From: Promethearchaeota archaeon
GTDB lineage: Archaea; Asgardarchaeota; Lokiarchaeia; Sigyniarchaeales; SOKP01
Assembly (NCBI GenBank): GCA_019057865.1
Contig: JAHLWP010000015.1
Coordinates: 22,225 to 86,224 of the forward strand
DNA length: 64,000 bases
Reading direction: 5' to 3'
A program made the translations under genes and the position numbers. The notes under the pieces are model-generated. The model did no database searches and was not told the origin of the DNA. It saw only the letters and a program-made list of their open reading frames with translations. Each line of letters begins with the position of its first letter. The first letter of the stretch is position 1. Positions 2,880 through 20,364 of this stretch are shown here, one piece after another.

Positions 2880-4178
2880 ATGGAGCCATATCTTCTTTTA
2901 ATAATTTTCATATTGTTTGCTCTAATAATTTTAAGTTATTCAAAATCAAATTTGGATTTTGTAGCAATTTCCTTATTATGTTGTTTTACAGCAGCATCAA
3001 TTACATCTTTAGTAGTTGGTACTACATTTAATGATTTCATTGTTGGGATTCAATGGCAAGCAATTATTGTAATATTATGTATGAGTTTAATTACAAAAAT
3101 CGCCCAAGATTCAAATATCTTGGAATTTTTGGCTGTAAAACTCTTTAAAGTTTCTAGAGGCAACCAAAGAATATTTTTTTGGCTTCTTTGTACAATCACA
3201 ACACTTTTAGCCGCAGTTATTAGTGATATAGTTGTCGTTTTGATATTAGCACCAATCGTTATTCGGTTATGCCATTTTTTAAGAATAAGATCGGGGACAT
3301 ATCTTTTAGGGATGACCATTTGTATTAATATTGGCTCTATAATAACTCCTTTTTCAAGTGGGGAAAATATTATCATATCCACTGAATTTGAACTTAATAC
3401 ATTTTATTTTATTCAAAATTTTTGGATCTTTTCATTTTTCTTGTTATTTTTAACAATATACTTACTAGATAGATTTCTTTTATCAAAAGAACCTAAGATT
3501 GATGAAGAACAGAAAAAGTTTGTTATTGACTTAGTAGATACTGATATTATGATAAAAAATAAGAAAATGTTCTATTTTAACAGTATTGCGATAATATTTA
3601 TTTTTGTTTTATTCGCCATATTACCTTTATTATATTTAACAGCAGCAATGTCCGCTTTAATTTTGGTACTAGTTAATAGAAAATTTACTAAAAAACCAAT
3701 GGGTGAACTTTTAAAAGATATTGAATGGGAAATTATCTTCTTTTTCATTTCGTTATACGTAGTTATTAAATGTCTTTTAGATGCTGGATTAGAAGAACTT
3801 TTCACTTCGATTCCATTTGAAACATTCAATCCAATTCTCTTATCTTTTTTAATTCTAATAATTGTTAGTGCAGTCAGTGGATTTATTGCTAATACTCCAA
3901 CTGCATTAATTTTTAATGTAATAATTCAAACTTTAATAATCCAGTTTGAATTTGTTCCATTACCTCTTTTATTTGCCTTTATCATTGCAATTAATCTTGG
4001 GGGTAATTTTATACCTCAAGGAGCTGCATGTGATATGATGACATTAAAAATAGCAAGAGATTCGGGGGTAGATAATTTAAGTTATAGAAGATTACTAATT
4101 ACTGGCGCTACTTTTGCCTTAATACATATAGGAATTTCAGCCATTTACTTAACAATATTTACAGTAATATTTGGCTAA
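2880..4178 (+). CDS. ArsB/NhaD (IT superfamily) anion/cation permease
   Basis: Many TM helices, NIGSIITPFSSGENIII and NLGGNFIPQGAACD hairpin motifs, SGFIANTP. Confidence 0.8.
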   Translation: MEPYLLLIIFILFALIILSYSKSNLDFVAISLLCCFTAASITSLVVGTTFNDFIVGIQWQAIIVILCMSLITKIAQDSNILEFLAVKLFKVSRGNQRIFFWLLCTITTLLAAVISDIVVVLILAPIVIRLCHFLRIRSGTYLLGMTICINIGSIITPFSSGENIIISTEFELNTFYFIQNFWIFSFFLLFLTIYLLDRFLLSKEPKIDEEQKKFVIDLVDTDIMIKNKKMFYFNSIAIIFIFVLFAILPLLYLTAAMSALILVLVNRKFTKKPMGELLKDIEWEIIFFFISLYVVIKCLLDAGLEELFTSIPFETFNPILLSFLILIIVSAVSGFIANTPTALIFNVIIQTLIIQFEFVPLPLLFAFIIAINLGGNFIPQGAACDMMTLKIARDSGVDNLSYRRLLITGATFALIHIGISAIYLTIFTVIFG

Positions 4179-4263: not shown

Positions 4264-4389
4264 TTACAACCACAATCTGAGTCGCATCGAATCAATAACT
4301 CTTTCAATTGAAATCATTAATACTCCCATTCTATTATGAGTATTATATTTTTTAGCTTGATCTAAAGTTGAGTGATATGCTTTTGTCAT
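4264..4389 (-). pseudogene. 41-aa ORF homologous to the C-terminal helices of glutamate dehydrogenase (remnant of a fourth gdh, or a microprotein)
   Basis: MTKAYHSTLDQAKKYNTHNRMGVLMISIERVIDSMRLRLWL aligns without gaps to MTKAYRSTVDKAKEYNTHNRMGAYIIAVGRVVDAMQLRGWL of the 7157-8422 GDH. Confidence 0.8.
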
Positions 4390-4451
4390 TATCCAATCTT
4401 ATACTTAAAAAATTTAAAATTAAAAAAAGATTTTAATAATATATTATTCAA

Positions 4452-5702
4452 TTATGGAAAAATACCTCTTAATTCAACAGCTTTTGCTACTCGAGAAAGA
4501 GCAATAATATAAGCGGCTGTCCTTAAGATTAAATTCTTCTCTTTTGAGATTTTGTACACGTTTTCAAATGCATCTACAATAATTTTTTTTAATTCTTTAT
4601 TGACACGATCTAAACTCCAAAAGTAACTGTGTATATCTTGAATATATTCAAAATAAGATACGCAAACACCACCCGCATTAGCCAAAATATCTGGAATCAC
4701 AAAGATTCCTTTATTATGTAGAATTTTATCTGCTTCTGGAGTTGTTGGACCATTTGCACCTTCTAAAATAATCTTACAATTTATTTTATCAGCATTAATA
4801 TTAGTTATTTGATTCTCCAAAGCTGCTGGAACCAACACGTCGCATTTTGTAGTAAGTAATTCTTCGTTTGAAATATGCTTATAATTATTTTTGTTAAAGT
4901 CTCTTAAAAATTTTCCTTGATCTCTCCATTCTAATAATTCTTTAATGTTTAAACCTTTTTCTGAATAAATTCCACCGAAGATATCTGAAACTGCAAATAT
5001 TTTACTACCATAGTTATATAATATGTTAGCAATCCATCCTCCAACATTCCCAAATCCTTGAATTATAATGCTCATGGATTTCAAATCGTAATTTAATTTA
5101 TTACATAATGCTTCAAGCACATAAAACATGCCCATACCAGTAGCACTATCTCTACCCACAGATCCTCCTATTTCTATTGGTTTTCCAGTAACAACTCCAG
5201 GTATAGTTCGTCCTTTTTGCATGCTATATACGTCCATGATCCATGCCATGATTTGTGCATTAGTATTAACATCTGGTGCAGGGATATCGATATCTGGACC
5301 AATAAAATTTATAATTTCAGCTGTATATCTTCTCGTAAGTCTTTCTAACTCTTTTTTAGATAATTTTAAAGGATCTACGAATATACCTCCTTTTGCTCCT
5401 CCAAAAGGTAAATTCAAGAGACTACTTTTCCAAGTCATCCATATTGCTAAAGCCTTTACTTCATCAAGAGTAACATTTAGAGAATATCGTATACCTCCTT
5501 TCCCAGGTCCTCTAATTGTTGAATGATGAACTCTATATCCTTCAAAAATTTTCAACTTACCATCATCCATCATAATCGGAATAGAAACAATTAGGGAGCG
5601 TTCTATCCGCTTTAAATATGGAACAATATTTGAGTCCAAATCCATAACTTCTGCTACAATATCTATCTGTTTTTTTGCCATTTCATAAGGATTTATAGCT
5701 AT
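4452..5702 (-). CDS. gdhA: Glu/Leu/Phe/Val dehydrogenase (glutamate dehydrogenase); probable ATA start at 5702 (first ATG 5681)
   Basis: KGGIRY, MTWK, GGAKGG, DIPAPD, GFGNVG, EGANGP, NAGGV; the conserved NPYE motif lies upstream of the first ATG. Confidence 0.92.
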   Translation of the reverse strand: MAINPYEMAKKQIDIVAEVMDLDSNIVPYLKRIERSLIVSIPIMMDDGKLKIFEGYRVHHSTIRGPGKGGIRYSLNVTLDEVKALAIWMTWKSSLLNLPFGGAKGGIFVDPLKLSKKELERLTRRYTAEIINFIGPDIDIPAPDVNTNAQIMAWIMDVYSMQKGRTIPGVVTGKPIEIGGSVGRDSATGMGMFYVLEALCNKLNYDLKSMSIIIQGFGNVGGWIANILYNYGSKIFAVSDIFGGIYSEKGLNIKELLEWRDQGKFLRDFNKNNYKHISNEELLTTKCDVLVPAALENQITNINADKINCKIILEGANGPTTPEADKILHNKGIFVIPDILANAGGVCVSYFEYIQDIHSYFWSLDRVNKELKKIIVDAFENVYKISKEKNLILRTAAYIIALSRVAKAVELRGIFP

Positions 5703-5749
5703 TTTATTTCACCTTAAGATTTTTTCATAATAAATTAAAATTTAAGCAA

Positions 5750-7000
5750 TTAGGGAAATAATCCTCTTAATTCATGTGCTTTAGCTAATCTTTTTGCGCC
5801 AATAGCGAATGCTGCTATCCTAAGTGAAGTATTCATTTTTTTTGATAAATTATATACATCCTCAAAAGTTTTAATAATAATATTTTTCATTTCTCTATTA
5901 ACACGATCTAATCCCCAGAAATAACTGTGTATATCTTGAATATATTCAAAATATGAAACACATACTCCCCCGCTATTTGCAAGAATATCTGGAACGATAA
6001 TTACGCCCTTCTCATTCAAGATGGCGTCCGCTTGGGAAGTTGTTGGACTATTTGCGCCTTCCAATATGATTTTACAATCTATATTATCAGCATTTTTACT
6101 GTAAATTTGATTCTCAACCGCAGCAGGGATCAAGACATCACATTTTAAACTAAGTAATTCATCATTGGTTATAGTACTAATATTTTTTCCATTATAATCT
6201 TTAAGTGAATTCCCTTGTTGCTTCCATTTAATTATTTCGTTAATATCTAATCCGTCTGGTGAGTATATCCCTCCTTGTTTTTCAGAAACTGCAATGACAT
6301 TACATGAAATTTCACATAACTGTTTAGCAACAACCGATCCCACTTTTCCAAATCCTTGAATCACAATTTTCATTTTTTTTAAATCAAAATTTAGTTTCTG
6401 GCAAATGTGTTTAAGTAGATAACCCATTCCAGTTCCAGGGGCTTCAAGTCTTCCAACAGAACCCCCTATTTCAATTGGTTTACCAGTTACTACGCTTGGG
6501 ATAGTTCGACCCTTTTGCATACTATATGTATCCATGATCCAAGCCATTGTGGTTGAATCAGTATACATATCTGGTGCTGGAATATCTATATCTGGGCCAA
6601 TCATACTTATGATTTCAGCAGTATATCTTCTAGTCAATCGTTCTAATTCTTTTTTCGATAATTCTTTAGTATCTACGCAAACTCCCCCTTTAGATCCTCC
6701 TAAAGGTAAATTTAAAAGACTTGTCTTAAATGTCATTAAAAACGCTAAAGCTTTAATTTCGTCAAGAGTAACATCTGGAGAATATCTTAAACCTCCTTTT
6801 GCTGGACCTCGTAAAGTTGAATGATGAACTCTGTAACCTTCAAAAATTTTAAGAAAACCATCATCCATAACTATAGGGATGGAAACTATTAGTGAACGTT
6901 CAACCTTTTTTAGATATTCTAAAGTATTTGGATTTAAATTTATTAGTTCCGCAGCAATATCAAGTTTCTTTTTAGCACTTTCAAACGGATTTATTATCAA
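5750..7000 (-). CDS. gdhA: Glutamate dehydrogenase paralogue
   Basis: KGGLRY, MTFK, GGSKGG, DIPAPD, GFGKVG; start TTG 7000 (or 7018). Confidence 0.9.
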   Translation of the reverse strand: MIINPFESAKKKLDIAAELINLNPNTLEYLKKVERSLIVSIPIVMDDGFLKIFEGYRVHHSTLRGPAKGGLRYSPDVTLDEIKALAFLMTFKTSLLNLPLGGSKGGVCVDTKELSKKELERLTRRYTAEIISMIGPDIDIPAPDMYTDSTTMAWIMDTYSMQKGRTIPSVVTGKPIEIGGSVGRLEAPGTGMGYLLKHICQKLNFDLKKMKIVIQGFGKVGSVVAKQLCEISCNVIAVSEKQGGIYSPDGLDINEIIKWKQQGNSLKDYNGKNISTITNDELLSLKCDVLIPAAVENQIYSKNADNIDCKIILEGANSPTTSQADAILNEKGVIIVPDILANSGGVCVSYFEYIQDIHSYFWGLDRVNREMKNIIIKTFEDVYNLSKKMNTSLRIAAFAIGAKRLAKAHELRGLFP

Positions 7001-7156
7001 TATTTTCACAATATACAATTATTTTTATGATAATTAACTTAAATTGTGATCAATATTTAAAATTAAATTTTTTTTAAAAAAATTAGGATTTATTTGTAGA
7101 GAATATGTTTTTGTTTAATAAATTCTTAAAATTTATAAAAAATTTTCATCTAAAAA

Positions 7157-8422
7157 TTATAACCAACCACGTAATTGCATAGCATCTACAACCCTCCCAA
7201 CTGCTATTATATAAGCACCCATTCGATTGTGAGTATTATATTCTTTTGCTTTATCAACTGTAGAACGATATGCCTTAGTCATCACACGATCCAAAGCTGT
7301 AAATACTTCCTTTTCATCCCAGAAATATTGATAATATCCTTGGACCATTTCGAAATATGAAACAGTAACTCCTCCCGCATTACATAAAAAGTCAGGAATC
7401 ACGAAAATTTCATTCTTAGATAAAATTTGATCTCCTGCAGGTGTAGTTGGTCCATTTGCAAGTTCTGCAACAATCTTACAATTTAATTTTTCTGCATTCT
7501 TTCGTGTTATAACATTTTCAAGTGCAGCAGGAATTAAAATATCACATTCTAATTCTAATAATTCTTCATTGGTTATCATTTGAGCATCTTTTAGACCTAC
7601 CAATGTTGATGTTTTTTCCTTTTGAACCAAAGCCTTGTTAGGATCGATACCATCCTTATTATATATTCCACCCTTGGAATCAGATATTGCAATAATTTTA
7701 CAATTAAAATCTTGCGTTAAGATTTTAGAAGCCCAAGATCCGGCATTTCCAAATCCTTGTATAACTACCTTTGCACCATTTAGATTTAATTCGATATCTT
7801 TTGCAGCTTCTCTAATACAAAACGCGCCACCTTTAGCTGTCGAGATTAGACGTCCAGCACTTCCACCTAAAGGCAAAGGTTTTCCAGTAATTACAGCAGG
7901 TGCATGTTTACGCATAATTGTTTCGTATTCATCCATCATCCACGCCATAATCTGAGGGTTAGTATAAACATCAGGTGCAGGTACATCAATTGAAGGTCCA
8001 ATTATATCAGCTAATTTTCTAATATAATTTCTTGCAAGTATTTCAAGTTCTCTATTACTCATCTCTTTAGGAGTACAAATAATTCCTCCTTTAGCACCTC
8101 CTAATGGAATATCCACACAGGCACATTTCCAAGTCATCCAAGCAGATAGAGCTTTAACAAGAGCAGCACTTTCATCGGGATGCCATCTAATTCCCCCTTT
8201 CATTGGCCCTCTCGCTGAGTTATATTGACTCCTAAAACCCTTAAATGTTTGCAAAGATCCATTGTCCATTCTCATAGTTATTTTTATTTCGACAAATCTT
8301 TCTGGCTGATTCAAAGCCTTATAAATTTCTCTATCACAACTCATTAACTTACAGGCTGTGTAAAGCTGAATTTGAGAAATCTGAAAAGGATCTAAATTTT
8401 CACTATCTTTTAACTTTTCCAT
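7157..8422 (-). CDS. gdhA: Glutamate dehydrogenase (archaeal type)
   Basis: GPMKGGIRWHP, MTWKC, GGAKGG, DVPAPDV, GFGNAG, ELANGP, C-terminal LRGWL. Confidence 0.93.
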   Translation of the reverse strand: MEKLKDSENLDPFQISQIQLYTACKLMSCDREIYKALNQPERFVEIKITMRMDNGSLQTFKGFRSQYNSARGPMKGGIRWHPDESAALVKALSAWMTWKCACVDIPLGGAKGGIICTPKEMSNRELEILARNYIRKLADIIGPSIDVPAPDVYTNPQIMAWMMDEYETIMRKHAPAVITGKPLPLGGSAGRLISTAKGGAFCIREAAKDIELNLNGAKVVIQGFGNAGSWASKILTQDFNCKIIAISDSKGGIYNKDGIDPNKALVQKEKTSTLVGLKDAQMITNEELLELECDILIPAALENVITRKNAEKLNCKIVAELANGPTTPAGDQILSKNEIFVIPDFLCNAGGVTVSYFEMVQGYYQYFWDEKEVFTALDRVMTKAYRSTVDKAKEYNTHNRMGAYIIAVGRVVDAMQLRGWL

Positions 8423-8429
8423 AATTTAG

Positions 8430-11162
8430 CTATGATTTTTTTTTAGAAATTTTATTAGTTAAATAATTGTCTATTTCTTTAGCAGCTCTCTTTCCTGCAC
8501 CCATAGCAGATATAACAGTAGCACTTCCAGTAACTATATCTCCACCAGCAAATACTCCCTCTATATTAGTCTGTCCATTTTCATTCGTATTAATATATCC
8601 CCATTTGGTCAATTTTAATTCTGGAATTGATTTTGTAAGGATAGGATTTGCTCGTGCACCTATGGCTATGATAATGGTATCAGTGTCTATTAAATATTCC
8701 GAATTTTCAATACGAATTGGTCTTCTACGTCCAGATTCGTCAGGTTCTCCTAATTTCATTTTAATAACCTCCATTTGCTTGACGTTTTCATTTTCATCCC
8801 CTATAAATCTCACTGGGTTTGTTAAGAATTGAAATTTAATGCCTTCTTCTATAGCATGATGATATTCTTCCCTTCTTGCAGGCATTTCTACCTCCGACCT
8901 TCTATATACGACTATAACCTTCTCCGCACCTAACCTTAGTGCTGTTCTGGCTGAATCTAAAACAACGTTACCTCCTCCAATAACAGTTACGATTTTTCCA
9001 ATTTTAATGGGTGTATCATAATCAGGAAATCTGTAAGCTTTCATTAAATTTGATCGTGTTAGGAACTCATTAGCAGTTAGAACTCCATTTAAGTTCAGTC
9101 CGGTTACTTTAAGAAATATGGGAAGTCCCGCGCCAACTCCAATGAAAAAGGCTTTGAATCCCATCTTCTTTAACTCATCAAGAGTTAGGGTTTTTCCAAT
9201 AATTGTATTATACTCTATTTTTACATTTAGCATCTTCAATGTCTCAATTTCATCTTTAACAATTTCTTTTGGCAACCTAAACTCTGGAATTCCGTATGTA
9301 AGGACACCCCCTCCAGCATGGAATGCCTCGAAAATAGTAACATCATAACCCCTCATTGCTAATTCTCCAGCAGCTGCTAACCCGGCAGGTCCTGAACCTA
9401 TAACAGCAACTTTAATACCTTTAGGAGCTGCACATTCGGGACATTCTTTTAATTTGTTTTTTCTTTCCCAATCAGCAATAAATCTTTCTAAATAACCAAT
9501 TGCAATTGGTTCTCCAAGAGAGTTTAATAAGCATGTTTTTTCACATTGCATTTCTTGTGGACATACTCTTCCACAAATGGCAGGTAATAAATTATCTGTT
9601 TTGATTTTATAGAGAGCCTCAATAAATTTTTCCTGTTTTAAAAGTTTTATAAATTCAGGGATTCTAATATCTACAGGACAACCAGTAACACAGAGCGGCA
9701 ATCCACATTGTAAGCATCTTTGAGTTTCTAGTTTGACTAATTCAGTTGTTAATCCTTTTGGTACTTCTTCAAAATTAGTTGTTCTTATTTTTGGATCTTG
9801 TTCAATCATCTTCACTGGATATTGATCAATATAATTTTTTAACTTAGACTTAGCGATTCTACTTAATTCATTATAACTTCTGCTATCTCCTTTTATATCT
9901 TCTTTAATAATCTTATTAAGGTCTAATGCTTTTTGAAAAAACTCAGCACCTTGTTTAGTACGTATAATTACTGTTGACCAACCAGGTTCAGAACCAATTG
10001 ATCCTACTGAAATATCTGCATGTTCAGCTGTTAAATCATCACAGAAAAAACAACCAAATCTCCCATATTTCTTAATTCTTTTTATTGGAATATCAGAAAT
10101 TTTACTATCTTGATCATAAATGATAAATCTTCCCTTATCTATATCCATCTTTTTAACATCAGAAGGATAAACTTGAAACTCATTCTTCAAAAGTTCAATA
10201 ATTTTATTATAATCAAAGGACTCCATGCAAAAGACTCCAATTTTTAGCACTATATTATCATAAAATGGCTTATTTAAAGGATAAAAAGAGATTTTTTTAA
10301 GAGCTTTCATAATACAAGGTGTGCCAACTACTGCAATTTTATCATGATCCTTGGCATCGTGAAAAATTTTTAATACTGGGGTATTTGTATACTTTGTACC
10401 TGCAGTCATTAGGAGTTCTTCATCATTTTCAACTAAAATTGGTAATGGTTTTAGAGGTTCATCTCCTACAGTAACAGCAAAAGAACCATCAATAAACCCT
10501 TGTTCAAATGCGGTTTTAAGTAATGTAGTAACTATTCCTCCATCTTGTGCTACTTTCTTTATACGCGGATAGGTTGTCTGAGCTGTATAAATATCCCGAT
10601 AATAATTGAACTGTTCTAAGAATTTGATATTAGGAGTGTGATTTTCTTCATGATTTTCTAATACTTTTGGAAAAAAGGATCTGGGACAACATGAATAACA
10701 TAATCCACATTCAATACATGACTCATCATCAATCTCAAATGTCCCTTCAGAATAATCAATTGCATTAACAGGGCAGATTGTAACACATAAACCACAACCA
10801 CAACAAAGGTTCGTCTCTTTAATTATGGTGGTATTAGGAAAAACTCCCTTTTTTTCAGACTTTTCAATTATATCTTGAAAAAATCTAGGTTTCTCCCCTA
10901 CAAATCCTAGTAATCCTAATTCTTTTAAATATTCGATATTAGCGAATATATTTGTGTCTGATAAGTTTAATTCCTCTTGTAATCTCTGAATATCAGTAGT
11001 ACCTAATTCTTCAATTTTTTTTAAAATTCTTTGCCTGTCACTTTCTGCAATAGATAAAGAATTAATCAATTGTTCAAATTCTAGTTTATTATATTTTCCA
11101 ATTTTTAGGATTTTATCCTTATTATTTAGTAATGTATCAATTAAGGGGGATTGTACTTCCAT
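8430..11162 (-). CDS. Fusion protein: N-terminal wHTH-like domain + 2x[4Fe-4S] + FrhB/FpoF F420-binding domain + NfnL (NfnB/SudA/GltD-like) flavoprotein
   Basis: CCGCGLCVTICP/CIECGLCYSCCP; FrhB motifs AQDGGIVT, AGTKY, VGTPC, IGVFCMESF, GCFFCDD...ADISVGSIGS..GWSTVIIRT; NfnL motifs RCLQC..CVTGCP, GRVCPQE.QCE, GSGPAG, GGGNV, YRRS, GGDIVTG. ATG 11162 lies behind a GAGGT RBS. Confidence 0.88.
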   Translation of the reverse strand: MEVQSPLIDTLLNNKDKILKIGKYNKLEFEQLINSLSIAESDRQRILKKIEELGTTDIQRLQEELNLSDTNIFANIEYLKELGLLGFVGEKPRFFQDIIEKSEKKGVFPNTTIIKETNLCCGCGLCVTICPVNAIDYSEGTFEIDDESCIECGLCYSCCPRSFFPKVLENHEENHTPNIKFLEQFNYYRDIYTAQTTYPRIKKVAQDGGIVTTLLKTAFEQGFIDGSFAVTVGDEPLKPLPILVENDEELLMTAGTKYTNTPVLKIFHDAKDHDKIAVVGTPCIMKALKKISFYPLNKPFYDNIVLKIGVFCMESFDYNKIIELLKNEFQVYPSDVKKMDIDKGRFIIYDQDSKISDIPIKRIKKYGRFGCFFCDDLTAEHADISVGSIGSEPGWSTVIIRTKQGAEFFQKALDLNKIIKEDIKGDSRSYNELSRIAKSKLKNYIDQYPVKMIEQDPKIRTTNFEEVPKGLTTELVKLETQRCLQCGLPLCVTGCPVDIRIPEFIKLLKQEKFIEALYKIKTDNLLPAICGRVCPQEMQCEKTCLLNSLGEPIAIGYLERFIADWERKNKLKECPECAAPKGIKVAVIGSGPAGLAAAGELAMRGYDVTIFEAFHAGGGVLTYGIPEFRLPKEIVKDEIETLKMLNVKIEYNTIIGKTLTLDELKKMGFKAFFIGVGAGLPIFLKVTGLNLNGVLTANEFLTRSNLMKAYRFPDYDTPIKIGKIVTVIGGGNVVLDSARTALRLGAEKVIVVYRRSEVEMPARREEYHHAIEEGIKFQFLTNPVRFIGDENENVKQMEVIKMKLGEPDESGRRRPIRIENSEYLIDTDTIIIAIGARANPILTKSIPELKLTKWGYINTNENGQTNIEGVFAGGDIVTGSATVISAMGAGKRAAKEIDNYLTNKISKKKS

Positions 11163-11163
11163 C

Positions 11164-12048
11164 CTATGATACCTCACGTTCATATTTTTCTAAAGCTCTA
11201 CATTCCTCCTCATAACATTCTAAAGATTCTTTTTCTTGAGCAAGAAATCTATTAGCGCGTTTTAGTAGATTATCAAAATTAACAATATGTCCATCAACAT
11301 CAGGACCATCTACACACGCAAATTGGATATCTCCATCAATAGTGGAAAAACGACAACCTCCACACATTCCAGTTCCATCAATCATAATAGTATTCAAAGA
11401 AACATAAGTCTTTACTTTAGGTAAATCACCAGATCCATTAGTAGTAAGAGCGACAAATTTCATCATGATTAGAGGTCCAATCGCAATTACAATACTAATT
11501 TTCTCTCTTTTTAGTATATCTTTAAGTGGTTCAGTAACAACTCCCTTCCTTCCTTCAGTCCCATCATCAGTACAAATGATTAATTCATCACTTACAGAAC
11601 GCATTTTTTCTCTCCAAAATAGTAAACTTGTGTTTCTTGCACCCATTATTGTAATTATTTTATTTCCTGCTTCCTTTAATTCTTTCACTTGAGGATAACA
11701 TGGAGCAATTCCAACACCACCCCCAATTATTATTACAGGAAATTCATACTTTTGAATGTGAATTCTATTTCCTAAAGGTCCAACAACATCAAGGATCTTA
11801 TCACCTACATTTTGATGAGACAATAATTTAGTACTTTTCCCGATAACCTGAAAAACAATAGTTATTATTCCTTTTTCTCTGTTATAATCTGCGATTGTTA
11901 ATGGAAATCTTTCACCAGTTTCATTTATTCTTAATAATATGAAATTTCCAGCATATGCTTTTTGAGCGATTAGTGGAGTGTGAAGAACCATTTCGAATAG
12001 TAATCCACTAGTCCCAAATTCCCTTTTCTCTAATATTTCATATGGCAA
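11164..12048 (-). CDS. nfnA: NfnS (NfnA/SudB-like) FAD/[2Fe-2S] subunit of NADH-dependent ferredoxin:NADP+ oxidoreductase
   Basis: GERFPLTIAD, GPLG, GGGVGIAP, TDDG, DGTGMCGGCR, CVDGP. Confidence 0.88.
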   Translation of the reverse strand: MPYEILEKREFGTSGLLFEMVLHTPLIAQKAYAGNFILLRINETGERFPLTIADYNREKGIITIVFQVIGKSTKLLSHQNVGDKILDVVGPLGNRIHIQKYEFPVIIIGGGVGIAPCYPQVKELKEAGNKIITIMGARNTSLLFWREKMRSVSDELIICTDDGTEGRKGVVTEPLKDILKREKISIVIAIGPLIMMKFVALTTNGSGDLPKVKTYVSLNTIMIDGTGMCGGCRFSTIDGDIQFACVDGPDVDGHIVNFDNLLKRANRFLAQEKESLECYEEECRALEKYEREVS

Positions 12049-12242: not shown

Positions 12243-12450
12243 TTAATTTAGGAAAAATAATTCTCCAATAAAAATAGTTAAACCTATAGTTTTAATTCTA
12301 TCTTTTAATACCTTATATTCATTCAAATAGCAATTGAAATGAGCTAAGCTCTTCGGGCAACTAACAGTCATGTATTTTGCACCACTTTTTATAGCTTCTT
12401 TAATCTGATTTCTTTGAATTATTTTAGAATAATCAGTATAGATTAAATAA
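12243..12450 (-). pseudogene. C-terminal fragment of a CCG-domain (HdrD/GlpC-type) Fe-S oxidoreductase
   Basis: IKEAIKSGAKYMTVSCPKSLAHFNCYL resembles the CCG EA...GA...VT.CP.C motif; no N-terminal part, second Cys replaced. Confidence 0.55.
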
Positions 12451-12640
12451 ACAAACACTCTGCAACTATTTTTTAATCCTTTCAGAATTGAGAAGATAAT
12501 GGTTGTAAAATTAAACTTGATCAAAAGATCCAATGTGTTATAGAAATTTCTAAGTTTTTATGGAAAAGTTAATTTGGTTAGAAAAATTTATAGAGAATAA
12601 GAACTAATTCAAATGCCTATAGATTCTGCTAATAATTGAT

Positions 12641-14194
12641 ATGATTATTGTCTTAGATTTTGGGGGTCAATATTGCCATTTAATTGCAAGAAGAATTAGA
12701 GAGTTAGGAGTATATTCCGAGATTTTACCTTATGATATTGATTTAAATAAAATTAAAGAAATAAATCCAAATGGGATTATTTTATCTGGAGGACCTGGAA
12801 GTGTATATGATAAAGGCAGTCCGCAATTATCAAAAGAATTTTATGATTATGTAAGAGGAAATAAAATTGCTGTTCTCGGAATTTGTTATGGTCTTCATTT
12901 ACTTATTCATCAACTTGGTGGAAAAATTGAACCGCATGTTCAGAAAGAATATGGCCGGACAGAAATAAATATCATAAAACCAGAAGGACTGCTTGATTCT
13001 TTAAAAAAAAGAGAAATAGTATGGATGTCTCATGGAGACCAAGTAAAAGAAATGCCTGATGGCTTTCAAATATTAGCTAAAACAGACACATGCCCTATAG
13101 CTGCTTATCAAAATAAAAAACTAAAAATATATGGGGTCCAATTTCATCCTGAAGTTATACATACGCCAAATGGAAACATCATACTCAATAATTTTATTAG
13201 TAAAATCGCAAATGCGAAGAAAGAATGGAAATTAGAGGATTGGATACAAAAAACGATCAAAGAGGTTCAACAAGAAATAGGTCCGAATAAAAGAGCTATT
13301 TTAGGTCTTAGTGGAGGTGTAGATTCATCTGTTACTGCCTTATTGATTCAAAAAGCAATTGGTGATAGACTACATTGTATCTTTGTAAATAATGGACTAT
13401 TGAGAAAAAATGAAGAAATAGAGGTTCAAAAGACATTTAAAGAAAATTTAAAATTCAAAAACTTTCATTATGTGGATGCTGAAGATCTTTTTCTGGATAA
13501 GCTTAAGGAAGTTGAAGATCCAGAGGAAAAACGTCGAATTATAGGACACACTTTTATTGAAGTATTTGAGAATAAGACTATTCAATTAGAAAAAGCGTAT
13601 CCTAATATAAAATACCTTGCCCAAGGTACAATATATCCAGATAGAGTGGAGACAAGTGCTACAAGTAATGCATCAGCGAAAATTAAATCACATCATAATC
13701 TTACCCTGCCTGATGATATGACATTGGAAATTATTGAACCATTGAGGGACTTGTATAAAGATGAAGTTAGAAAAATTGGAATTAAATTAGGCTTGCCAAA
13801 AGAAATAATTCATAGGCACCCATTCCCAGGACCAGGATTAGCTGTCAGAATTATTGGCGTCATAGACAAAGAGAAACTTGATATTTTGAGAGAGGCAGAT
13901 GAGATTCTAATTGATGGATTAAAAAAGGCAGGAATTTATGAAAGTCTATGGCAAGCATTTTGCGTGTTTTTGCCCTTAAAGACTGTCGGAATTATGGGTG
14001 ATTATCGAACTTATGAGTATATATGCGCAATAAGAGCAGTCGAATCTCTTGATGCAATGACTGCAAATTTCGCTAAATTAGATCTGGATTTATTGGAAAA
14101 AATTGGTACAAGAATCATTAATGAAGTAAAAGGAATAAATCGAGTAGTATATGATATCACCAATAAACCCCCAGGTACAATTGAATATGAATAA
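12641..14194 (+). CDS. guaA: GMP synthase, fused glutamine amidotransferase + synthetase
   Basis: LDFGGQY, SGGP, GICYG, QFHPEV, SGGVDS, QGTIYPD, IKSHHN, RHPFPGPGL, KPPGTIEYE. Confidence 0.97.
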   Translation: MIIVLDFGGQYCHLIARRIRELGVYSEILPYDIDLNKIKEINPNGIILSGGPGSVYDKGSPQLSKEFYDYVRGNKIAVLGICYGLHLLIHQLGGKIEPHVQKEYGRTEINIIKPEGLLDSLKKREIVWMSHGDQVKEMPDGFQILAKTDTCPIAAYQNKKLKIYGVQFHPEVIHTPNGNIILNNFISKIANAKKEWKLEDWIQKTIKEVQQEIGPNKRAILGLSGGVDSSVTALLIQKAIGDRLHCIFVNNGLLRKNEEIEVQKTFKENLKFKNFHYVDAEDLFLDKLKEVEDPEEKRRIIGHTFIEVFENKTIQLEKAYPNIKYLAQGTIYPDRVETSATSNASAKIKSHHNLTLPDDMTLEIIEPLRDLYKDEVRKIGIKLGLPKEIIHRHPFPGPGLAVRIIGVIDKEKLDILREADEILIDGLKKAGIYESLWQAFCVFLPLKTVGIMGDYRTYEYICAIRAVESLDAMTANFAKLDLDLLEKIGTRIINEVKGINRVVYDITNKPPGTIEYE

Positions 14195-14205
14195 ATATTA
14201 CCCAA

Positions 14206-14910
14206 TCATGCTAGATTTGAAACTATACCCTCTTTTTCTATTGTCCAAGCACCATAACCATGGATAAATAAACATATAGCAAATGTGTATAATACGATTT
14301 TTTGACCCGTTACTTGAATTATTAGTCCACTAGTTGTTTCTATGCTCGGTCCTGCAAATAGTAATACTAAATATAATGCTAAAATCACTGAAAACACCAT
14401 AAGATTATATCCATATTTTTTTGGGTAAGTTTTATCAAGAAAAATAGAGATTAAATATAAAAAGGAGGCAAAGAATCCTATTAGAAACCCTGCATAGACA
14501 AAAAGTATGTGTGCAGCCCGATGAATATCTGACGGTGCAAAAGTTATAGCAGAAAAACAAAACGCAGAGAATATTCCGAGAATAGACCCTCCAAGACTAA
14601 TCCAATGTTCTATACTCCCTTTATCGAAAAAATGTGGAAAAGCTAAAAATGATGGTATTAATAAGATACCCACGAAAAAAAATGCCGTGCTAAAAAAAAC
14701 AAATGCCACGAAATTAGACTCTCCTGAGTGTGATACCGTCCGACCTATATCACTAAAAAAATTTAAAAAGAAAGAATATCCTGGAATAGTATGGTCGTTA
14801 TATGTACCTCCCGTATAGAGTAACATTCCTATAAATGTGAAGAGGATAAATTGAGCACATCCAACCATATTCAAAATGTACGCCCATTTTTTCCAATTTG
14901 TAAGATTCAC
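14206..14910 (-). CDS. Multi-pass membrane protein (DUF998-like)
   Basis: ~6 TM segments, GYSFFLNFFSDIG motif. Confidence 0.65.
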   Translation of the reverse strand: MNLTNWKKWAYILNMVGCAQFILFTFIGMLLYTGGTYNDHTIPGYSFFLNFFSDIGRTVSHSGESNFVAFVFFSTAFFFVGILLIPSFLAFPHFFDKGSIEHWISLGGSILGIFSAFCFSAITFAPSDIHRAAHILFVYAGFLIGFFASFLYLISIFLDKTYPKKYGYNLMVFSVILALYLVLLFAGPSIETTSGLIIQVTGQKIVLYTFAICLFIHGYGAWTIEKEGIVSNLA

Positions 14911-15052
14911 TCTAATTCTCCCTAGAAAGGATTAAAAATTAAATTAATATCAATTTGAAATTATAAAAAACTATTGCCTTTTCTACTTCAAGACAAAAAC
15001 TTTTAATTTGGTAAATATTTTTTAATATCCAATTTTTAACATCTTGATTATA

Positions 15053-16843
15053 ATGACTGAAAAAGAAATTGCATGGGATTTAACTGAAATTTTTTCTGGG
15101 TCTGATGATACTAAAATAACTGCAACTATGGACAACTTATTGAAAAAAGCTGATGGATTCATAAATGACTATAAAGGAAAAATCATTACACCTGATTTTA
15201 ATTCCCAAAAATTGCTAGAACTGTTCAAAAAACAAGAGGAGTTTCAAGCAGATCTAGCTGAATTAAATCTCTATACAAATAGATTATATAGTGGGAATAT
15301 GACAATTCCAGAAAGCGAGGCTTTGAAAAATCGAGTTGAAGATTTTGGAACAAAAATATCAAAAGATTTAGCATTTTTGGAGTTAGATACAGCAAAATTT
15401 GTGAATAACAATCCTGATCTTGTTAATGATCCAATTTTATCTAATTATAAGCATATTTTAGAAACGATTCAAAGAGCATTTCCTCATTATTTATCTGAGG
15501 TGGAAGAGCAACTAATCCTTGAAAAAGATCAATATGGGATTAGGGCCTGGAGTAATTTACAGTCTAAATGGTTAAATACAAGAAAAATAATAGTAAGTGT
15601 TGAGGGTAAAGAGAAAGAGTTATCATATGGCGAAGCAAATGCTTTACTTACACATCCAGATAGGAATACTCGAATATCAGCAAATAAATCTATTTATGGT
15701 TTGCTAGAGAAGGAAGAGTATGTGTTTTCATCAGCACTACGGAGTGTTTGTGGAGATTGGGTAAAAAATTCTCAAAGACGAAAATATGATACCCCAATGC
15801 ACAATAGTCTTATAGTAAATGATACAAATCAAGAAATTATTGATAATTTAATGAAAGCAATAGAAGAAGGGGTAGAAGTATATCGCAAATATCTAAGCCT
15901 AAAAATTAAAATATTAGATCTTCCTAAGTTAAATTGTGCAGATGTTCGAGCTCCGCTCCCAATGGCGCCTCACAAAAAATATTCATGGGAAGAAGCAAAA
16001 CAATTGGCAATTCAAGCCTATGAAAAATTTGATCCTGAATTTGCTAAAATTGTAAAAGATATGTTTACTCGAAATCATATTGATGCGAGTCCTAGAAAGG
16101 GTAAAAGAAATGGAGCAAATTGTGCTTCATGGTATAAAGGTAAATCTGCTTATATTCTTATGACTTATACTGGAGAAATCAATGAAATTTTTACGCTTAT
16201 TCACGAGCTTGGACATGCCATCCATGGTTATTTGGCTATTGCTGAACAAACCTACTTTAATATTCATCCTGGTTACACCGTAGCAGAAACCGCATCAACC
16301 TTCGGGGAATTATTAATAACCGATCTCCTCCTTGAAAAGGCAGGTTCAGATGAAGAAAAAATGGCGATATTAGCGCATGTATTGGATGATGCTGGGCAAG
16401 CTGCTTTTCAAGTGAGTGCTAGAGTCTGGTTTGAACAGGATCTCTATAAGGCTATTGAAAGTGGTGAAAATTTGGATGGAAAAACGATTTCAAAGTATTG
16501 GTGTGCTGGTAGAGACAAAATTTATGGAGATTCTGTAGAATGGTTTGATGAAATGGATTGGGAGTGGACAATGAAACCACATTACTTTATACCAAATTTT
16601 CGTTTCTACAATTATCCATATGTTTATGCTCAATTGTTTGTTTATGCCTTATATAAAACGTATAAACAAGAGGGAAAAGAATTTGTCCATAAGTTCAAAA
16701 AACTTCTCGCTGTGGGGGGTAGTTTGTCTCCAGAAGACCTTGGTAAAATTGTAGGATTAGATGTCACAAAAAAAGATTTTTGGAAGTTAGGAATTAAACA
16801 ATATGAAGATTTCGTAAATCAGTTAGAAAAACTTATGAATTAA
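15053..16843 (+). CDS. pepF: Oligoendopeptidase F (M3B)
   Basis: WDLTEI, PRKGKRNGA, HELGH zinc motif, AETASTF, FYNYPY. Confidence 0.92.
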   Translation: MTEKEIAWDLTEIFSGSDDTKITATMDNLLKKADGFINDYKGKIITPDFNSQKLLELFKKQEEFQADLAELNLYTNRLYSGNMTIPESEALKNRVEDFGTKISKDLAFLELDTAKFVNNNPDLVNDPILSNYKHILETIQRAFPHYLSEVEEQLILEKDQYGIRAWSNLQSKWLNTRKIIVSVEGKEKELSYGEANALLTHPDRNTRISANKSIYGLLEKEEYVFSSALRSVCGDWVKNSQRRKYDTPMHNSLIVNDTNQEIIDNLMKAIEEGVEVYRKYLSLKIKILDLPKLNCADVRAPLPMAPHKKYSWEEAKQLAIQAYEKFDPEFAKIVKDMFTRNHIDASPRKGKRNGANCASWYKGKSAYILMTYTGEINEIFTLIHELGHAIHGYLAIAEQTYFNIHPGYTVAETASTFGELLITDLLLEKAGSDEEKMAILAHVLDDAGQAAFQVSARVWFEQDLYKAIESGENLDGKTISKYWCAGRDKIYGDSVEWFDEMDWEWTMKPHYFIPNFRFYNYPYVYAQLFVYALYKTYKQEGKEFVHKFKKLLAVGGSLSPEDLGKIVGLDVTKKDFWKLGIKQYEDFVNQLEKLMN

Positions 16844-17101
16844 TTGACTTCATTTGTTATTCTGCCTTCAATTGTCTTGGTTAGATTGGAGGGTCTATTT
16901 TTTTTTTAAATATCCATATATCCAACGACCAATTCTCCTAAATAAGGTGTAGGAATTGATCCTTCATTCATCCTACTCACTGGACTCTTGCTTGTACCGC
17001 TGCCAGTACCATCGAAGGTCATTCCATCCACCTTTCCTTCTTGCATATAGGCCAAATTTTCCTATAACATGAAAATCTTTTTAACATCACCTCCTTATCT
17101 T

Positions 17102-17356
17102 TTACAAGGCCTCATATTGACGTGGTCTACGATTATAATATATTTTTAATCTTTCTGGTGCTTTTATGTTAATTCTTCGGATTACTTTAGAGAGAGAGTT
17201 GGGATTTGAATATCCCATCGCCGCAGACCATTCTGCTGCTGTGGATCTTCCTAATTCTCTTAATTTTTCTAAACATATTTGCTCGTATGTTCTTGTCTCT
17301 TTTTCTATCGTCTTTAACTTCTCCTGAAATTTATATCTAAATTGTTTTAATGACAT
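17102..17356 (-). CDS. Small basic winged-HTH-like DNA-binding protein
   Basis: LEKLRELGRSTAAEWSAAMGYSNPNSLSKVIRRI HTH pattern. Confidence 0.6.
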   Translation of the reverse strand: MSLKQFRYKFQEKLKTIEKETRTYEQICLEKLRELGRSTAAEWSAAMGYSNPNSLSKVIRRINIKAPERLKIYYNRRPRQYEAL

Positions 17357-17390
17357 CTTAATTCTGGGTAAAGCATCATTTCATTTTATG

Positions 17391-17406
17391 TGGGAATGCT
17401 TTCCCA
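17391..17406. promoter_or_regulatory. Palindrome TGGGAA-TGCT-TTCCCA, candidate operator upstream of the small HTH gene
   Basis: Perfect 6-bp inverted repeat; related half-site TGGGTAAAGCAT at 17365-17376. Confidence 0.4.
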
Positions 17407-17740
17407 TTACTTACTTAAATAATAATACACGCGGTCATATATAAATCTTCGGATTGTGATTAAACAATTCTATAATATTTCATCAAATTATTAAATAACT
17501 CGACAAAAATAATAAAACAGAATGAACAAAGCACCTAGATCGAGTAAATATTATGAACTATTTTCAATACTATATAGTCATATATTTTAAATTAATGGTT
17601 AATTATTGAAAAATTTTTAATTTAGTAGATGTATTTTTATAGAGCTAACAAAATAAGTGTTAAATATCTTAGTATCAATATACAACTTAATCCAATATTT
17701 TCATTTTAATATATATATAAAAAAATAGAATTGATTTAAA

Positions 17741-18283
17741 ATGAGTTTAAAGTGTTATTATCATCCTGAAAGAGAATCTATTACCAAATGTGAAACCTGT
17801 GGGAGATTAATTTGTGTAGCGTGTAAAACAGTTGTTCATAGAACACATGGAACTAACGAAGATAGATATTCTACCCGTCATGAAGTTTGTGTTCCATGTA
17901 AACTCGATGAAGAGCTACAAAAATTCAGTATGACCCGAATTATTGCTACTTTTTCTATTTTCTTTATTTTCATAATTATATTCATATCTATAACTACTGT
18001 TACCAATACTCAGATGAGAGATCCTATTTTGAGATTTCTTCCTATTATAGGTATTGTAGCATTAATTATTATCACCATAGGCTATCTTATTTGGATGATA
18101 TTTAAACGGCCTAAAGAAATAGCAAAGATTAAAATTCAGAAAGAAGAATTCTTAAAAAGTATAAAAGTTCCAACAAGTATTAAAGAAGAGGAAATAATAA
18201 CAAAGTTTTGTCCTGAATGTGGTACTCGAGTTGAACCCGATACTTCAGTTTGTAGCTATTGTGGCTTTATTATTAAAGAATAA
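17741..18283 (+). CDS. B-box-like zinc finger + 2 TM + C-terminal zinc ribbon protein
   Basis: CYYHP..CETC...ICVAC...CVPC, two hydrophobic helices, CPECG...CSYCG. Confidence 0.75.
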   Translation: MSLKCYYHPERESITKCETCGRLICVACKTVVHRTHGTNEDRYSTRHEVCVPCKLDEELQKFSMTRIIATFSIFFIFIIIFISITTVTNTQMRDPILRFLPIIGIVALIIITIGYLIWMIFKRPKEIAKIKIQKEEFLKSIKVPTSIKEEEIITKFCPECGTRVEPDTSVCSYCGFIIKE

Positions 18284-18312
18284 TTTGAATAATTCCTATT
18301 TCCAATTTTAAT

Positions 18313-18804
18313 TTATTCTTCTTCTTTTTCTTCTTTTTTTAATATTTTTACAAGAGAACTACCTTCTTTTATGACATTTAAGACTAAGTGAGTATTAGTA
18401 CTTTCCACATATTCAGATGTATGAATTTTTTTAATCATCACACTAAGCTCTTTTCTAGTCTTAAATCTTACGAAGATGAGGGCATCGTAGGTTCCTGTAA
18501 TATCATAAACTCCAAACACATTCGGATTTTCAGCAATCATTCCCTCCACCTCAAGCATTTTACCTTTTGAAACAGTAATTTCAATAATCGCTATAATATC
18601 ATAACCTAATTTTTCATAATCAAGTTGAGCTCCGTAGGATTTTATTTTTCCTTCCCTTTCTAATTCTTCAACATGACTTTTAATGGTTACAGGAGATTTA
18701 CTTAATTCCTGTGCTATTTTTCTATAGGATTCACGGCCATCTTCACTTAAAATTTTTAATATTTCAAGATCTACATCTTTTGAGAGGATTTCTTCATCAT
18801 TCAT
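18313..18804 (-). CDS. Lrp/AsnC family transcriptional regulator, divergent from glnA
   Basis: DLEILKILSEDGRESYRKIA HTH; YDITGTYD RAM domain. Confidence 0.92.
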   Translation of the reverse strand: MNDEEILSKDVDLEILKILSEDGRESYRKIAQELSKSPVTIKSHVEELEREGKIKSYGAQLDYEKLGYDIIAIIEITVSKGKMLEVEGMIAENPNVFGVYDITGTYDALIFVRFKTRKELSVMIKKIHTSEYVESTNTHLVLNVIKEGSSLVKILKKEEKEEE

Positions 18805-19005
18805 ATTTAAACCTACTTTCTTAAATCATTAATATTAGATCACAATAAAAAAATATCTTGGGATTTAATATTTTAATTATTAATATATTATTATTTGTTT
18901 AAAAATTTGTCGGATTTCTGGACGTTTGATATAATTATAAGCAATATTTTTATATCTTTGATCATATATTTATATATAAATTGGAAATTAGGATTTTGAT
19001 ATTAT

Positions 19006-20364
19006 ATGATAGAAAAAAATCATCCTAAAAGAAAAGAGTTATGTGAAAAAGTAATCGAAAAAGTTAAGGAAAATGATATTAAATTCATCTATCTTCAATT
19101 TACAGACATGCATGGCATTATTAAGTCGTTTGAAATTAATTCAAAGCGAATAGAGGATTTTTTTGAAATAGGTGAGAGTTTTGATGGAAGTTCTATAACT
19201 GGTTATGGAGCGATTGAGGAATCAGATAAAGTTGCTCTTCCAGATCCATCAACATTTTACATTATACCTTGGAGAAATGATAATAGAAAAGTTGCTCGAG
19301 TATTTTGTGATATCTACAACCCTAATGGCTCAAGATACGATGGGGATCCGCGATATATACTTCAAAAAGCTGCGAAGAAAGCAGAAGACCATGGATATAC
19401 TTATTATTGTGCTCCAGAAATGGAATTCTTTATTTTAGAGAAAAGTACTAAAGCAGAGGTATTTAATCCATCAGATATGAGAGGATATTTCGATTATGAC
19501 CCATATGATATTAATGAGAAAGTGCGCTATACTATTGCTGAGTATTGTGATATAATGGGAATCGAAATAGAAGCTTTACACCATGAGGTAGCGCTTGGAC
19601 AACATGAAGTTGATTTTCGTTATGATGAAGCAGTTAATACAGCTGATAATACAAATACAATTAAAATGATAATTAAGACTGTAGCTGCCAAAAATAATAT
19701 GACTGCTACATTTATGCCCAAACCTTTCGCGGGTATTAATGGTTCAGGGATGCACGTACATCAATCATTATGGGAAGGGCAAAATAATGTTTTTTATGAC
19801 GAATCTGATAAAGATAATATTTCAATTATGATGAGGAAGTGGATAGCTGGTCAATTAAAACATGCAAGAGCAATGTGTGCTGTTCTAAGTAGTTGGCCTA
19901 ACTCTTATAAAAGGCTTGTGCCTGGCTATGAAGCACCTGTTTATATAGCTTGGGGATTCAGGAATAGATCTCCCTTAATTAGAGTACCAGATTTTCATGG
20001 TAAACCAAATGCTGCTCGATGTGAGATTCGATGCCCCGATCCTGCTGGAAATCCATATCTACAATTCGCTGTACTCTTGTCAGCAGGGTTAGATGGAATT
20101 TTATCTGAGGATATTGAGATTCCAGAATCTCGAGATGAGAATGTATATAAGCTTACAACAAAAGAAATGGAAAAAGCTGGAATTGTTGCATTACCTGGAA
20201 GCCTATCTGAAGCATTGAAGGAATTTAGAAATTCAGAATTCATGAAGGAAGTCTTTGGAGAGCAACCCTTCAAGAACTTTTACTATGCAAAATTAGAAGA
20301 AAACGATGCATATCGAGTTGTTGTAAGTGAATGGGAGAGAACTCGATATATAACACGCTTATAG
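19006..20364 (+). CDS. glnA: Glutamine synthetase type I
   Basis: FDGSSI, HHEVALGQHE, ATFMPKP, NGSGMHVHQS, SYKRLVPGYEAP, NRS..IRVP, EIRCPDP..NPYL. Confidence 0.96.
   Translation: MIEKNHPKRKELCEKVIEKVKENDIKFIYLQFTDMHGIIKSFEINSKRIEDFFEIGESFDGSSITGYGAIEESDKVALPDPSTFYIIPWRNDNRKVARVFCDIYNPNGSRYDGDPRYILQKAAKKAEDHGYTYYCAPEMEFFILEKSTKAEVFNPSDMRGYFDYDPYDINEKVRYTIAEYCDIMGIEIEALHHEVALGQHEVDFRYDEAVNTADNTNTIKMIIKTVAAKNNMTATFMPKPFAGINGSGMHVHQSLWEGQNNVFYDESDKDNISIMMRKWIAGQLKHARAMCAVLSSWPNSYKRLVPGYEAPVYIAWGFRNRSPLIRVPDFHGKPNAARCEIRCPDPAGNPYLQFAVLLSAGLDGILSEDIEIPESRDENVYKLTTKEMEKAGIVALPGSLSEALKEFRNSEFMKEVFGEQPFKNFYYAKLEENDAYRVVVSEWERTRYITRL

Follow-up and report, generated by a model that had tools for sequence, protein, structure and literature searches.

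Within a 64,000-nucleotide stretch of the genome of a Promethearchaeota archaeon (Lokiarchaeia; assembly GCA_019057865.1, contig JAHLWP010000015.1, positions 22,225 to 86,224; hereafter, the window), our analysis identified a gene whose product joins a module of the FrhB family to a large subunit of the transhydrogenase Nfn (NfnL), and which directly follows a gene for the small subunit (NfnS). Judged from sequence, this fusion is a real and conserved Nfn variant, for which coupling to coenzyme F420 would be the best-supported explanation. The reading that we favor, with modest confidence, is an F420-coupled NfnSL-type complex, whose use of F420, bifurcating mechanism and direction are all predicted. 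Anaerobes rely mainly on Nfn to connect their pools of NADH, NADPH and ferredoxin, and to our knowledge all characterized forms use ferredoxin; a natural Nfn wired to F420 would, if true, be the first one coupled to a deazaflavin. It would also add to the recent work in which CODH and Fwd, both ferredoxin enzymes, were found to be re-wired to F420 by FrhB modules, and alter metabolic reconstructions of the Lokiarchaeia, which are cultivable relatives of the ancestor of eukaryotes and in which the fused gene is now labelled "glutamate synthase" or taken for an ordinary NfnAB. A full-text search of the literature found no description of an FrhB-NfnL fusion.

Domain organization of the fused large subunit and its NfnS partner

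The nfnS gene (11164..12048; this and all other features of the cluster lie on the minus strand) encodes a 294 amino acid NfnA/NfnS-type small subunit that starts with TTG, carries a flavin adenine dinucleotide (FAD)/NAD(H) site and the [2Fe-2S] motif D-x4-C-x2-C...C, and matches NF004862 (356 bits, cut-off 220) as well as PF10418 and PF00175. Its TAG stop codon (11166-11164) is followed, one base on, by the ATG of the fused gene (8430..11162) at position 11162, with GAGGT just 5' of this start; the fused gene in turn stops at 8432-8430, and a 7-nucleotide spacer separates it from the ATG of the glutamate dehydrogenase gene gdh1 at 8422. These stop and ATG positions agree with the spacings of 1 and 7 nucleotides given in the initial annotation. 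From its ATG the fused gene comprises 910 codons, a length shared by a database copy (P0006), and nfnS lies immediately 5' of it in every relative examined.

The fused protein was divided, from its N-terminus, into: (i) an acidic helical domain of about 105 amino acids that resembles a winged helix-turn-helix (wHTH) domain (10848..11162); (ii) a 2x[4Fe-4S] ferredoxin domain of the Fer4 families with two CxxCxxCxxxC motifs (10674..10832); (iii) an FrhB-family domain (PF04422 and PF04432; 9894..10592) with FAD, one [4Fe-4S] cluster and a putative F420 site; (iv) a linker that represents the fusion junction (9786..9893), modelled with a low predicted local distance difference test (pLDDT) score; (v) the Fer4_20 domain of NfnL (PF14691; 9453..9785), which carries both [4Fe-4S] clusters of the low-potential branch; and (vi) the FAD/NADPH-binding domains of NfnL (PF07992; 8493..9413), where canonical Nfn has its bifurcating FAD. 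The initial annotation had proposed this order, and a Pfam scan matched each FrhB, Fer4_20 and Pyr_redox_2 profile nearly end to end. Numbered on a 917 amino acid reading of the open reading frame (ORF), it placed two Fer4 domains at residues 118-170, FrhB_N at 198-273 (profile 1-76 of 78; 72.3 bits, cut-off 22), FrhB_C at 281-430 (profile 2-147 of 150; 148.1 bits, cut-off 23.3), Fer4_20 at 467-577 (profile 1-112 of 113; 132 bits) and Pyr_redox_2 at 591-897 (profile 2-291 of 291; 134 bits). Across 32 fused homologues no cluster cysteine varies, the eight of the ferredoxin domain included; the NfnL ligands, the FrhB cluster cysteines and the FAD loops of FrhB show little or no variation.

Both Nfn subunits appear complete. 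The NfnL half matches TIGR01316 over its whole length (583.5 bits, cut-off 471.75; profile 2-449 of 449), a model for NfnB/SudA-type proteins that bears the misleading historical name "NADPH-dependent glutamate synthase" ("gltA"), and it scores 557 bits against Thermotoga maritima NfnB (4YLF_B) and 512 bits against Pyrococcus furiosus NfnI (5JCA_L). Its similarity to NfnB of known structure is about 60%, and its pattern of Cys/Glu cluster ligands and its YRR NADPH motif align with those of 4YLF_B. Canonical Nfn connects its bifurcating FAD to ferredoxin by way of two [4Fe-4S] clusters in NfnL. Here, the ferredoxin and FrhB domains lie N-terminal to these two clusters, so that the added module sits, as the initial annotation held, at the ferredoxin-docking end. 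The complex resembles the NfnSL enzymes of T. maritima and P. furiosus in the completeness of both subunits, the cluster ligands, the NADPH motif and the nfnS-nfnL gene order, but its large subunit is longer by about 440 residues at the N-terminus (wHTH-like, 2x[4Fe-4S] and FrhB), and the free ferredoxin used by canonical NfnSL is probably replaced or joined by F420. A docking prediction of the ferredoxin and FrhB module against the NfnL half scored 0.00, below the mark, and counts neither way.

Searches of the PDB with the N-terminal half of the protein returned CODH zeta (8RIU_B, 1e-55) and FwdI (8RJA_E, 2e-51), followed by FrhB of three methanogens (6QII_B among them, 2e-50) and Fsr (3e-42); HCAR, an FrhB relative that does not use F420, reached only 3e-4. 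The FrhB domain contains four [4Fe-4S] cysteines and the FAD-loop motifs QDGG, G-T-K-Y(T) and G-T-P-C, the FAD loops of FrhB having been described earlier (PMC3930138). The CODH and Fwd subunits of Ca. Ethanoperedens thermophilum belong to normally ferredoxin-linked enzymes that they couple to F420, as established by assay and crystal structure (PMC11493965); they share with the fused protein the order of ferredoxin and FrhB domains and the re-wiring of a ferredoxin enzyme to F420, but they are separate subunits with an assayed coupling, whereas the module described here is covalently joined to NfnL, has an additional wHTH-like domain and is a putative F420 module. Fsr (7NP8, 7NPA; PMC10229431) likewise has an FpoF/FrhB-like ferredoxin N-terminal half fused to a catalytic C-terminal half and a [4Fe-4S] relay; however, its C-terminal partner is a siroheme sulfite reductase rather than a flavin NADPH site, and its relay needs oligomerization. 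The FrhB, FpoF and FdhB proteins of methanogens are alike in their full FrhB_N and FrhB_C domains and their FAD and cluster motifs, whereas no hydrogenase, Fdh or Fpo partner genes are found near the fused gene. NfnB is also naturally fused to another redox module in the HdrA-NfnB protein of the anaerobic ANME-1 archaea (PMC9012536), in which it is inserted in HdrA and FrhB is lacking, whereas in the present case FrhB is joined to NfnB and NfnS is kept.

The "wHTH-like" label given to the N-terminal domain in the initial annotation should be treated as tentative. Residues 1-105 are modelled by AlphaFold2 as a confident fold (pLDDT 86) of helices around a long central helix. In VIA, residues 38-90 matched best to a set made up entirely of winged-helix domains (Lrp/AsnC, ROK, Z-alpha and FtsK-gamma; Z 6.9, root-mean-square deviation 1.8 A over 50 residues). 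For the domain as a whole, Pfam HTH families match weakly (E 0.003-0.01), and Foldseek returned no match at E <= 0.001 (E at least 1.5). The domain has a median isoelectric point of 5.2, and we read it as having a structural or protein-contact role rather than as a DNA binder.

Distribution and origin of the fusion

The distribution of the fusion was surveyed in 301 Asgard genomes, 69 of which represent the window's own Lokiarchaeial family and the remainder 29 other families. The full-length fusion was detected in the window's family only (36 of 69 genomes, in five genera, some with two copies), while genomes of the other 29 families matched the NfnL half alone. The search for the same architecture in other Asgard genomes that the initial annotation had recommended was successful within one family, where the fusion is common, and the architecture is less unusual than that annotation had implied. 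In the NCBI, JGI, ENA and Logan collections the architecture (~905-935 amino acids) is common to ~100 protein clusters at 90% identity, which are 58-100% identical and were labelled Lokiarchaeota or Promethearchaeota by their submitters. Near-identical DNA of the locus occurs in marine-sediment metagenomes of eight studies, and a query spanning the junction was covered end to end by one representative among 1.84 billion 50%-identity representatives.

The assembly analyzed here is a 4.26-Mb draft in 87 contigs (99.7% complete), and its fragmentation and estimated contamination (5.15%) could speak for an assembly or gene-calling artefact. However, contigs of three other, independent studies cross the FrhB-NfnL junction, and together with the ~100 clusters and the 36 sampled genomes they rule out the chimera that the initial annotation had named as a possible objection; we regard the chance of any such artefact as negligible.

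In a maximum-likelihood tree of the NfnL part, 23 of 24 fused sequences form a single clade (SH-aLRT 100) nested among the plain NfnLs of the family, the remaining one being long-branched and unplaced. Plain 490 amino acid proteins of two genomes (G162 and G261) fall inside this clade, which indicates a secondary loss of the module; nothing was found between nfnS and nfnL in either genome. This tree gives the fusion a single origin, from an NfnL of the family itself, followed by one or more losses. The retention of one clade in five genera, and its duplication in some genomes, implies that the fusion is under selection. Two unlinked fused copies occur in each of four genomes (G213, G273, G077 and G141), and at locus L056 (G279:C211:62000-75000) a 918 amino acid GltD-like/CCG gene comes first and tandem fused genes (913 and 906 amino acids) follow behind a single nfnS.

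The source of the added part is likely to be one of the stand-alone wHTH-ferredoxin-FrhB proteins of about 500 amino acids that are found in this genome and in its congeners, are 36-45% identical to the module and are encoded next to polyferredoxin, HdrD-like and HdrA-like genes. No split form, with a separate FrhB gene beside an unfused nfnL, was found; in five congeners the matches to the N-terminal half reach at most 45% and lie elsewhere in the genome. This genome has twelve FrhB-family genes. One of its clusters (L077; G000:C37:8960-17861) contains a polyferredoxin, a 501 amino acid wHTH-like, ferredoxin and FrhB protein, a 368 amino acid FrhB paralogue, an HdrD-like CCG protein and a 1031 amino acid HdrA-like flavoprotein, and may encode an F420-linked Hdr-type complex in a non-methanogen.

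A comparison with the congener G204 bears on the history of the locus. This genome, in which no fused copy was found, has plain nfnS (289 amino acids), nfnL (467 amino acids) and gdh genes at the orthologous guaA/pepF locus; its gdh is the orthologue of gdh1, and its gdh and guaA each share 74% identity with their counterparts in the window. This canonical nfnS-nfnL-gdh arrangement suggests that the fused form holds the metabolic place of Nfn, and the fused and plain forms at the same locus in close relatives offer a natural pair for side-by-side biochemistry. The two forms are probably not strictly equivalent, since one genome (G138) carries both. In other genera, a gene of ~918 amino acids with Fer4, GltD-like and CCG domains lies directly 5' of the pair formed by nfnS and the fused gene; in the window, a relic of its CCG domain is found 5' of nfnS (12243..12533; a 96-codon ORF; tblastn 44% identity, residues 813-917, E 2e-24), and several of its cysteines are lost. 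We infer that a cassette with the fused pair recombined into a canonical nfnSL-gdh locus.

A putative F420-coupled reaction and its alternatives

The genome encodes the F420 pathway that the initial annotation had advised checking for: CofG (372 bits), CofH (456 bits), CofD (310 bits) and CofE (257 bits) are each above their curated cut-offs, and CofC has a full-length match of 75 bits against a cut-off of 105. Of the 71 family genomes, 57 have a CofH match above its cut-off; five genomes that carry the fusion lack a CofH match, and CofD is present in four of these five. No true NfnL gene other than the fused one is present in the genome, the next matches being 45% and 39% identical. On another contig, a stop-interrupted fragment (G000:C15:9889-10238) that shares 84-85% identity with the fused protein over residues 774-914 is a decayed duplicate.

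In the proposed mechanism, NADPH would react at the FAD of NfnL, from which one branch would lead through the [2Fe-2S] cluster and then the FAD of NfnS to NAD+, and the other would run first to the NfnL pair of [4Fe-4S] clusters, next to the tethered ferredoxin domain, and then by way of the FrhB cluster to the FAD of FrhB. The FAD of an FrhB-type module converts between one-electron exchange with clusters and hydride exchange with F420, and here it would exchange a hydride with F420, replacing or supplementing the reduction of free ferredoxin. The predicted net reaction is 2 NADPH + NAD+ + F420 <-> 2 NADP+ + NADH + F420H2. At standard conditions the NADPH, NADH and F420 couples lie within about 20 mV of one another (F420 at about -340 mV), and because their potentials are so nearly equal the reaction would run near equilibrium, in a direction set by the pool ratios; the enzyme would thus act as a near-equilibrium link of the three pools and may serve the adjoining glutamate dehydrogenase gdh1. 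The conserved architecture, the Cof genes and the F420-reductase nearest relatives agree with the F420-coupled bifurcating Nfn suggested by the initial annotation, whereas its energetic side is less convincing than for a ferredoxin-linked enzyme.

Several points weigh against this proposal. The near equality of the three couples makes the energetic reason for bifurcation weaker than with ferredoxin, and the transfer of electrons from F420H2 into the very low-potential clusters of NfnL would, going by the potentials of NfnI, be steeply uphill and harder than from ferredoxin. The module stays below the cut-offs of the equivalog models TIGR03289 (225 vs 331.5), NF040616 for FpoF (160 vs 475) and PRK09325 (254 vs 269); it is a member of the FrhB family, within which it is neither an FrhB nor an FpoF subunit proper. 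Specificity for F420 cannot be read from sequence in a family that includes members using other substrates, and in the literature on Fsr, Frh and the CODH and Fwd complexes we found no residue-level F420 signature and no substrate-bound FrhB structure. The module is also dispensable, as two members of the fused clade have lost it; one fused-carrying genome that is 95% complete (G153) yielded neither CofH nor CofD; and the structural model has a predicted template modelling score of 0.61, with uncertain inter-domain geometry.

With respect to direction, we lean toward the oxidation of NADPH in amino acid catabolism with formation of F420H2 and NADH, because the clusters of NfnL should accept electrons less readily from F420H2 than from ferredoxin. 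The three gdh copies, pepF and the Iso_dh and GDH neighbors in relatives provide a context for this catabolic direction, and cultured relatives ferment amino acids (bioRxiv 10.1101/726976). The opposite, NADPH-supplying and assimilatory direction, which we consider less likely, would fit the glnA/Lrp context and the absence of glutamate synthase (GOGAT).

Taking into account that non-F420 enzymes such as HCAR belong to the FrhB family and that the FrhB and FpoF cut-offs are unmet, the module might function without F420, acting on another substrate or serving as an FAD and iron-sulfur relay to ferredoxin, flavodoxin or the Hdr-like Fer4, GltD-like and CCG protein. The position of the ~918 amino acid GltD-like/CCG gene directly 5' of nfnS in several genera, of which a relic is left here, and of the stand-alone module paralogues next to polyferredoxin and HdrA/HdrD-like genes would fit such a role, which we nevertheless consider unlikely: the near relatives of known function are all F420-dependent and stand 40-50 orders of E-value above HCAR, the F420 pathway is present in the genome, and the CCG gene has decayed here while nfnS and the fused gene are intact, which argues that this pair is independent of it. 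Rather improbable, in our view, is a plain, non-bifurcating F420H2:NAD(P)+ oxidoreductase that stands in for a missing Fno (F420H2:NADP+ oxidoreductase) and has no obligatory three-substrate coupling. Fno could do the same physiological job, the exchange of reducing power between F420 and NADP, but it is small and unrelated, a Rossmann protein with direct hydride transfer and neither iron-sulfur clusters nor flavin. The nearly equal potentials of F420, NAD and NADP would make coupling unnecessary, and no Fno was found above the NCBIfam cut-off in this genome or in any of the 71 family genomes; however, a full two-subunit Nfn is kept, with NfnS translationally coupled (1-nucleotide gap here) and nfnS adjoining in all relatives, and the NfnL cluster ligands typical of a bifurcating enzyme are conserved. 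In addition, a sub-threshold Fno-like gene (~215-247 amino acids, 64-97 bits) occurs chiefly in the genus of the window; its distribution tracks genus rather than fusion status and does not complement that of the fusion.

The public annotation would assign the fused protein to a glutamate synthase dependent on F420 or NADPH, as its small, GltD-like subunit, in line with its database name "NADPH-dependent glutamate synthase" (TIGR01316 bears the same historical name), the nitrogen-metabolism genes nearby and the putative F420-dependent glutamate synthases with FrhB homologues discussed for methanogens and anaerobic methanotrophic archaea (PMC9012536). This is very improbable: no GltB-type large subunit was found in the genome (top PF01645 match 25.5 bits, partial), which removes the reading, and in addition the partner gene is nfnS rather than GltB and the NfnL half resembles structurally defined NfnB. 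Returning to the F420-coupled NfnSL complex, we tentatively propose, as a possibility somewhat short of an even chance, that it represents a new flavin-based bifurcating class in which F420 is the third partner of Nfn and a single hub joins three hydride carriers, and which would have originated by a one-time fusion of a stand-alone wHTH-ferredoxin-FrhB protein onto the family NfnL and a later move of the cassette into the nfnSL-gdh locus.

Glutamate dehydrogenase genes and neighborhood

Downstream of the fused gene lie gdh1 (7157..8422, 421 amino acids), gdh2 (5750..7018, about 410-422 amino acids, start uncertain) and gdh3 (4452..5681, 409 amino acids), each with full-length ELFV_dehydrog_N and ELFV_dehydrog domains in Pfam. 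The second is of a glutamate dehydrogenase type other than gdh1, being 40% identical to gdh1 and 67% identical to gdh3. From nfnS to gdh3, the successive intergenic gaps measure 1, 7, 138 and 68 nucleotides, and T-runs directly 3' of the gdh1 stop precede the AT-rich 138-nucleotide gap before gdh2. Of the co-transcription with three gdh genes claimed by the initial annotation, the part concerning gdh1 is plausible, as the 1- and 7-nucleotide junctions, and these only, argue that nfnS and the fused gene would be coupled with gdh1; gdh2 and gdh3 are set apart by the 138- and 68-nucleotide gaps and the T-runs.

A short ORF beyond gdh3 (4264..4389, 41 codons) is 66% identical to the last 41 residues of gdh1 and only 26-28% identical to gdh2 and gdh3, and it is the remnant of a fourth, gdh1-type copy. 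There is no ATG near the start of the alignment of gdh2 with gdh3, and the listed TTG start adds ~13 unaligned residues; the true start of gdh2 may be non-canonical.

The genes around the operon (2880-4178 and 12641-20364) encode a CitMHS-type carrier, guaA, pepF, an Lrp/AsnC regulator and glnA, and the surroundings are a glutamate and nitrogen gene island. In relatives, the neighbors of the fused gene are the NAD(P)-linked dehydrogenases GDH and Iso_dh. A comparable set of AsnC, glnA, GDH, nfnS and the fused gene is found at a locus of another genus (L022), and the CitMHS carrier is present again in G204 and at L024.

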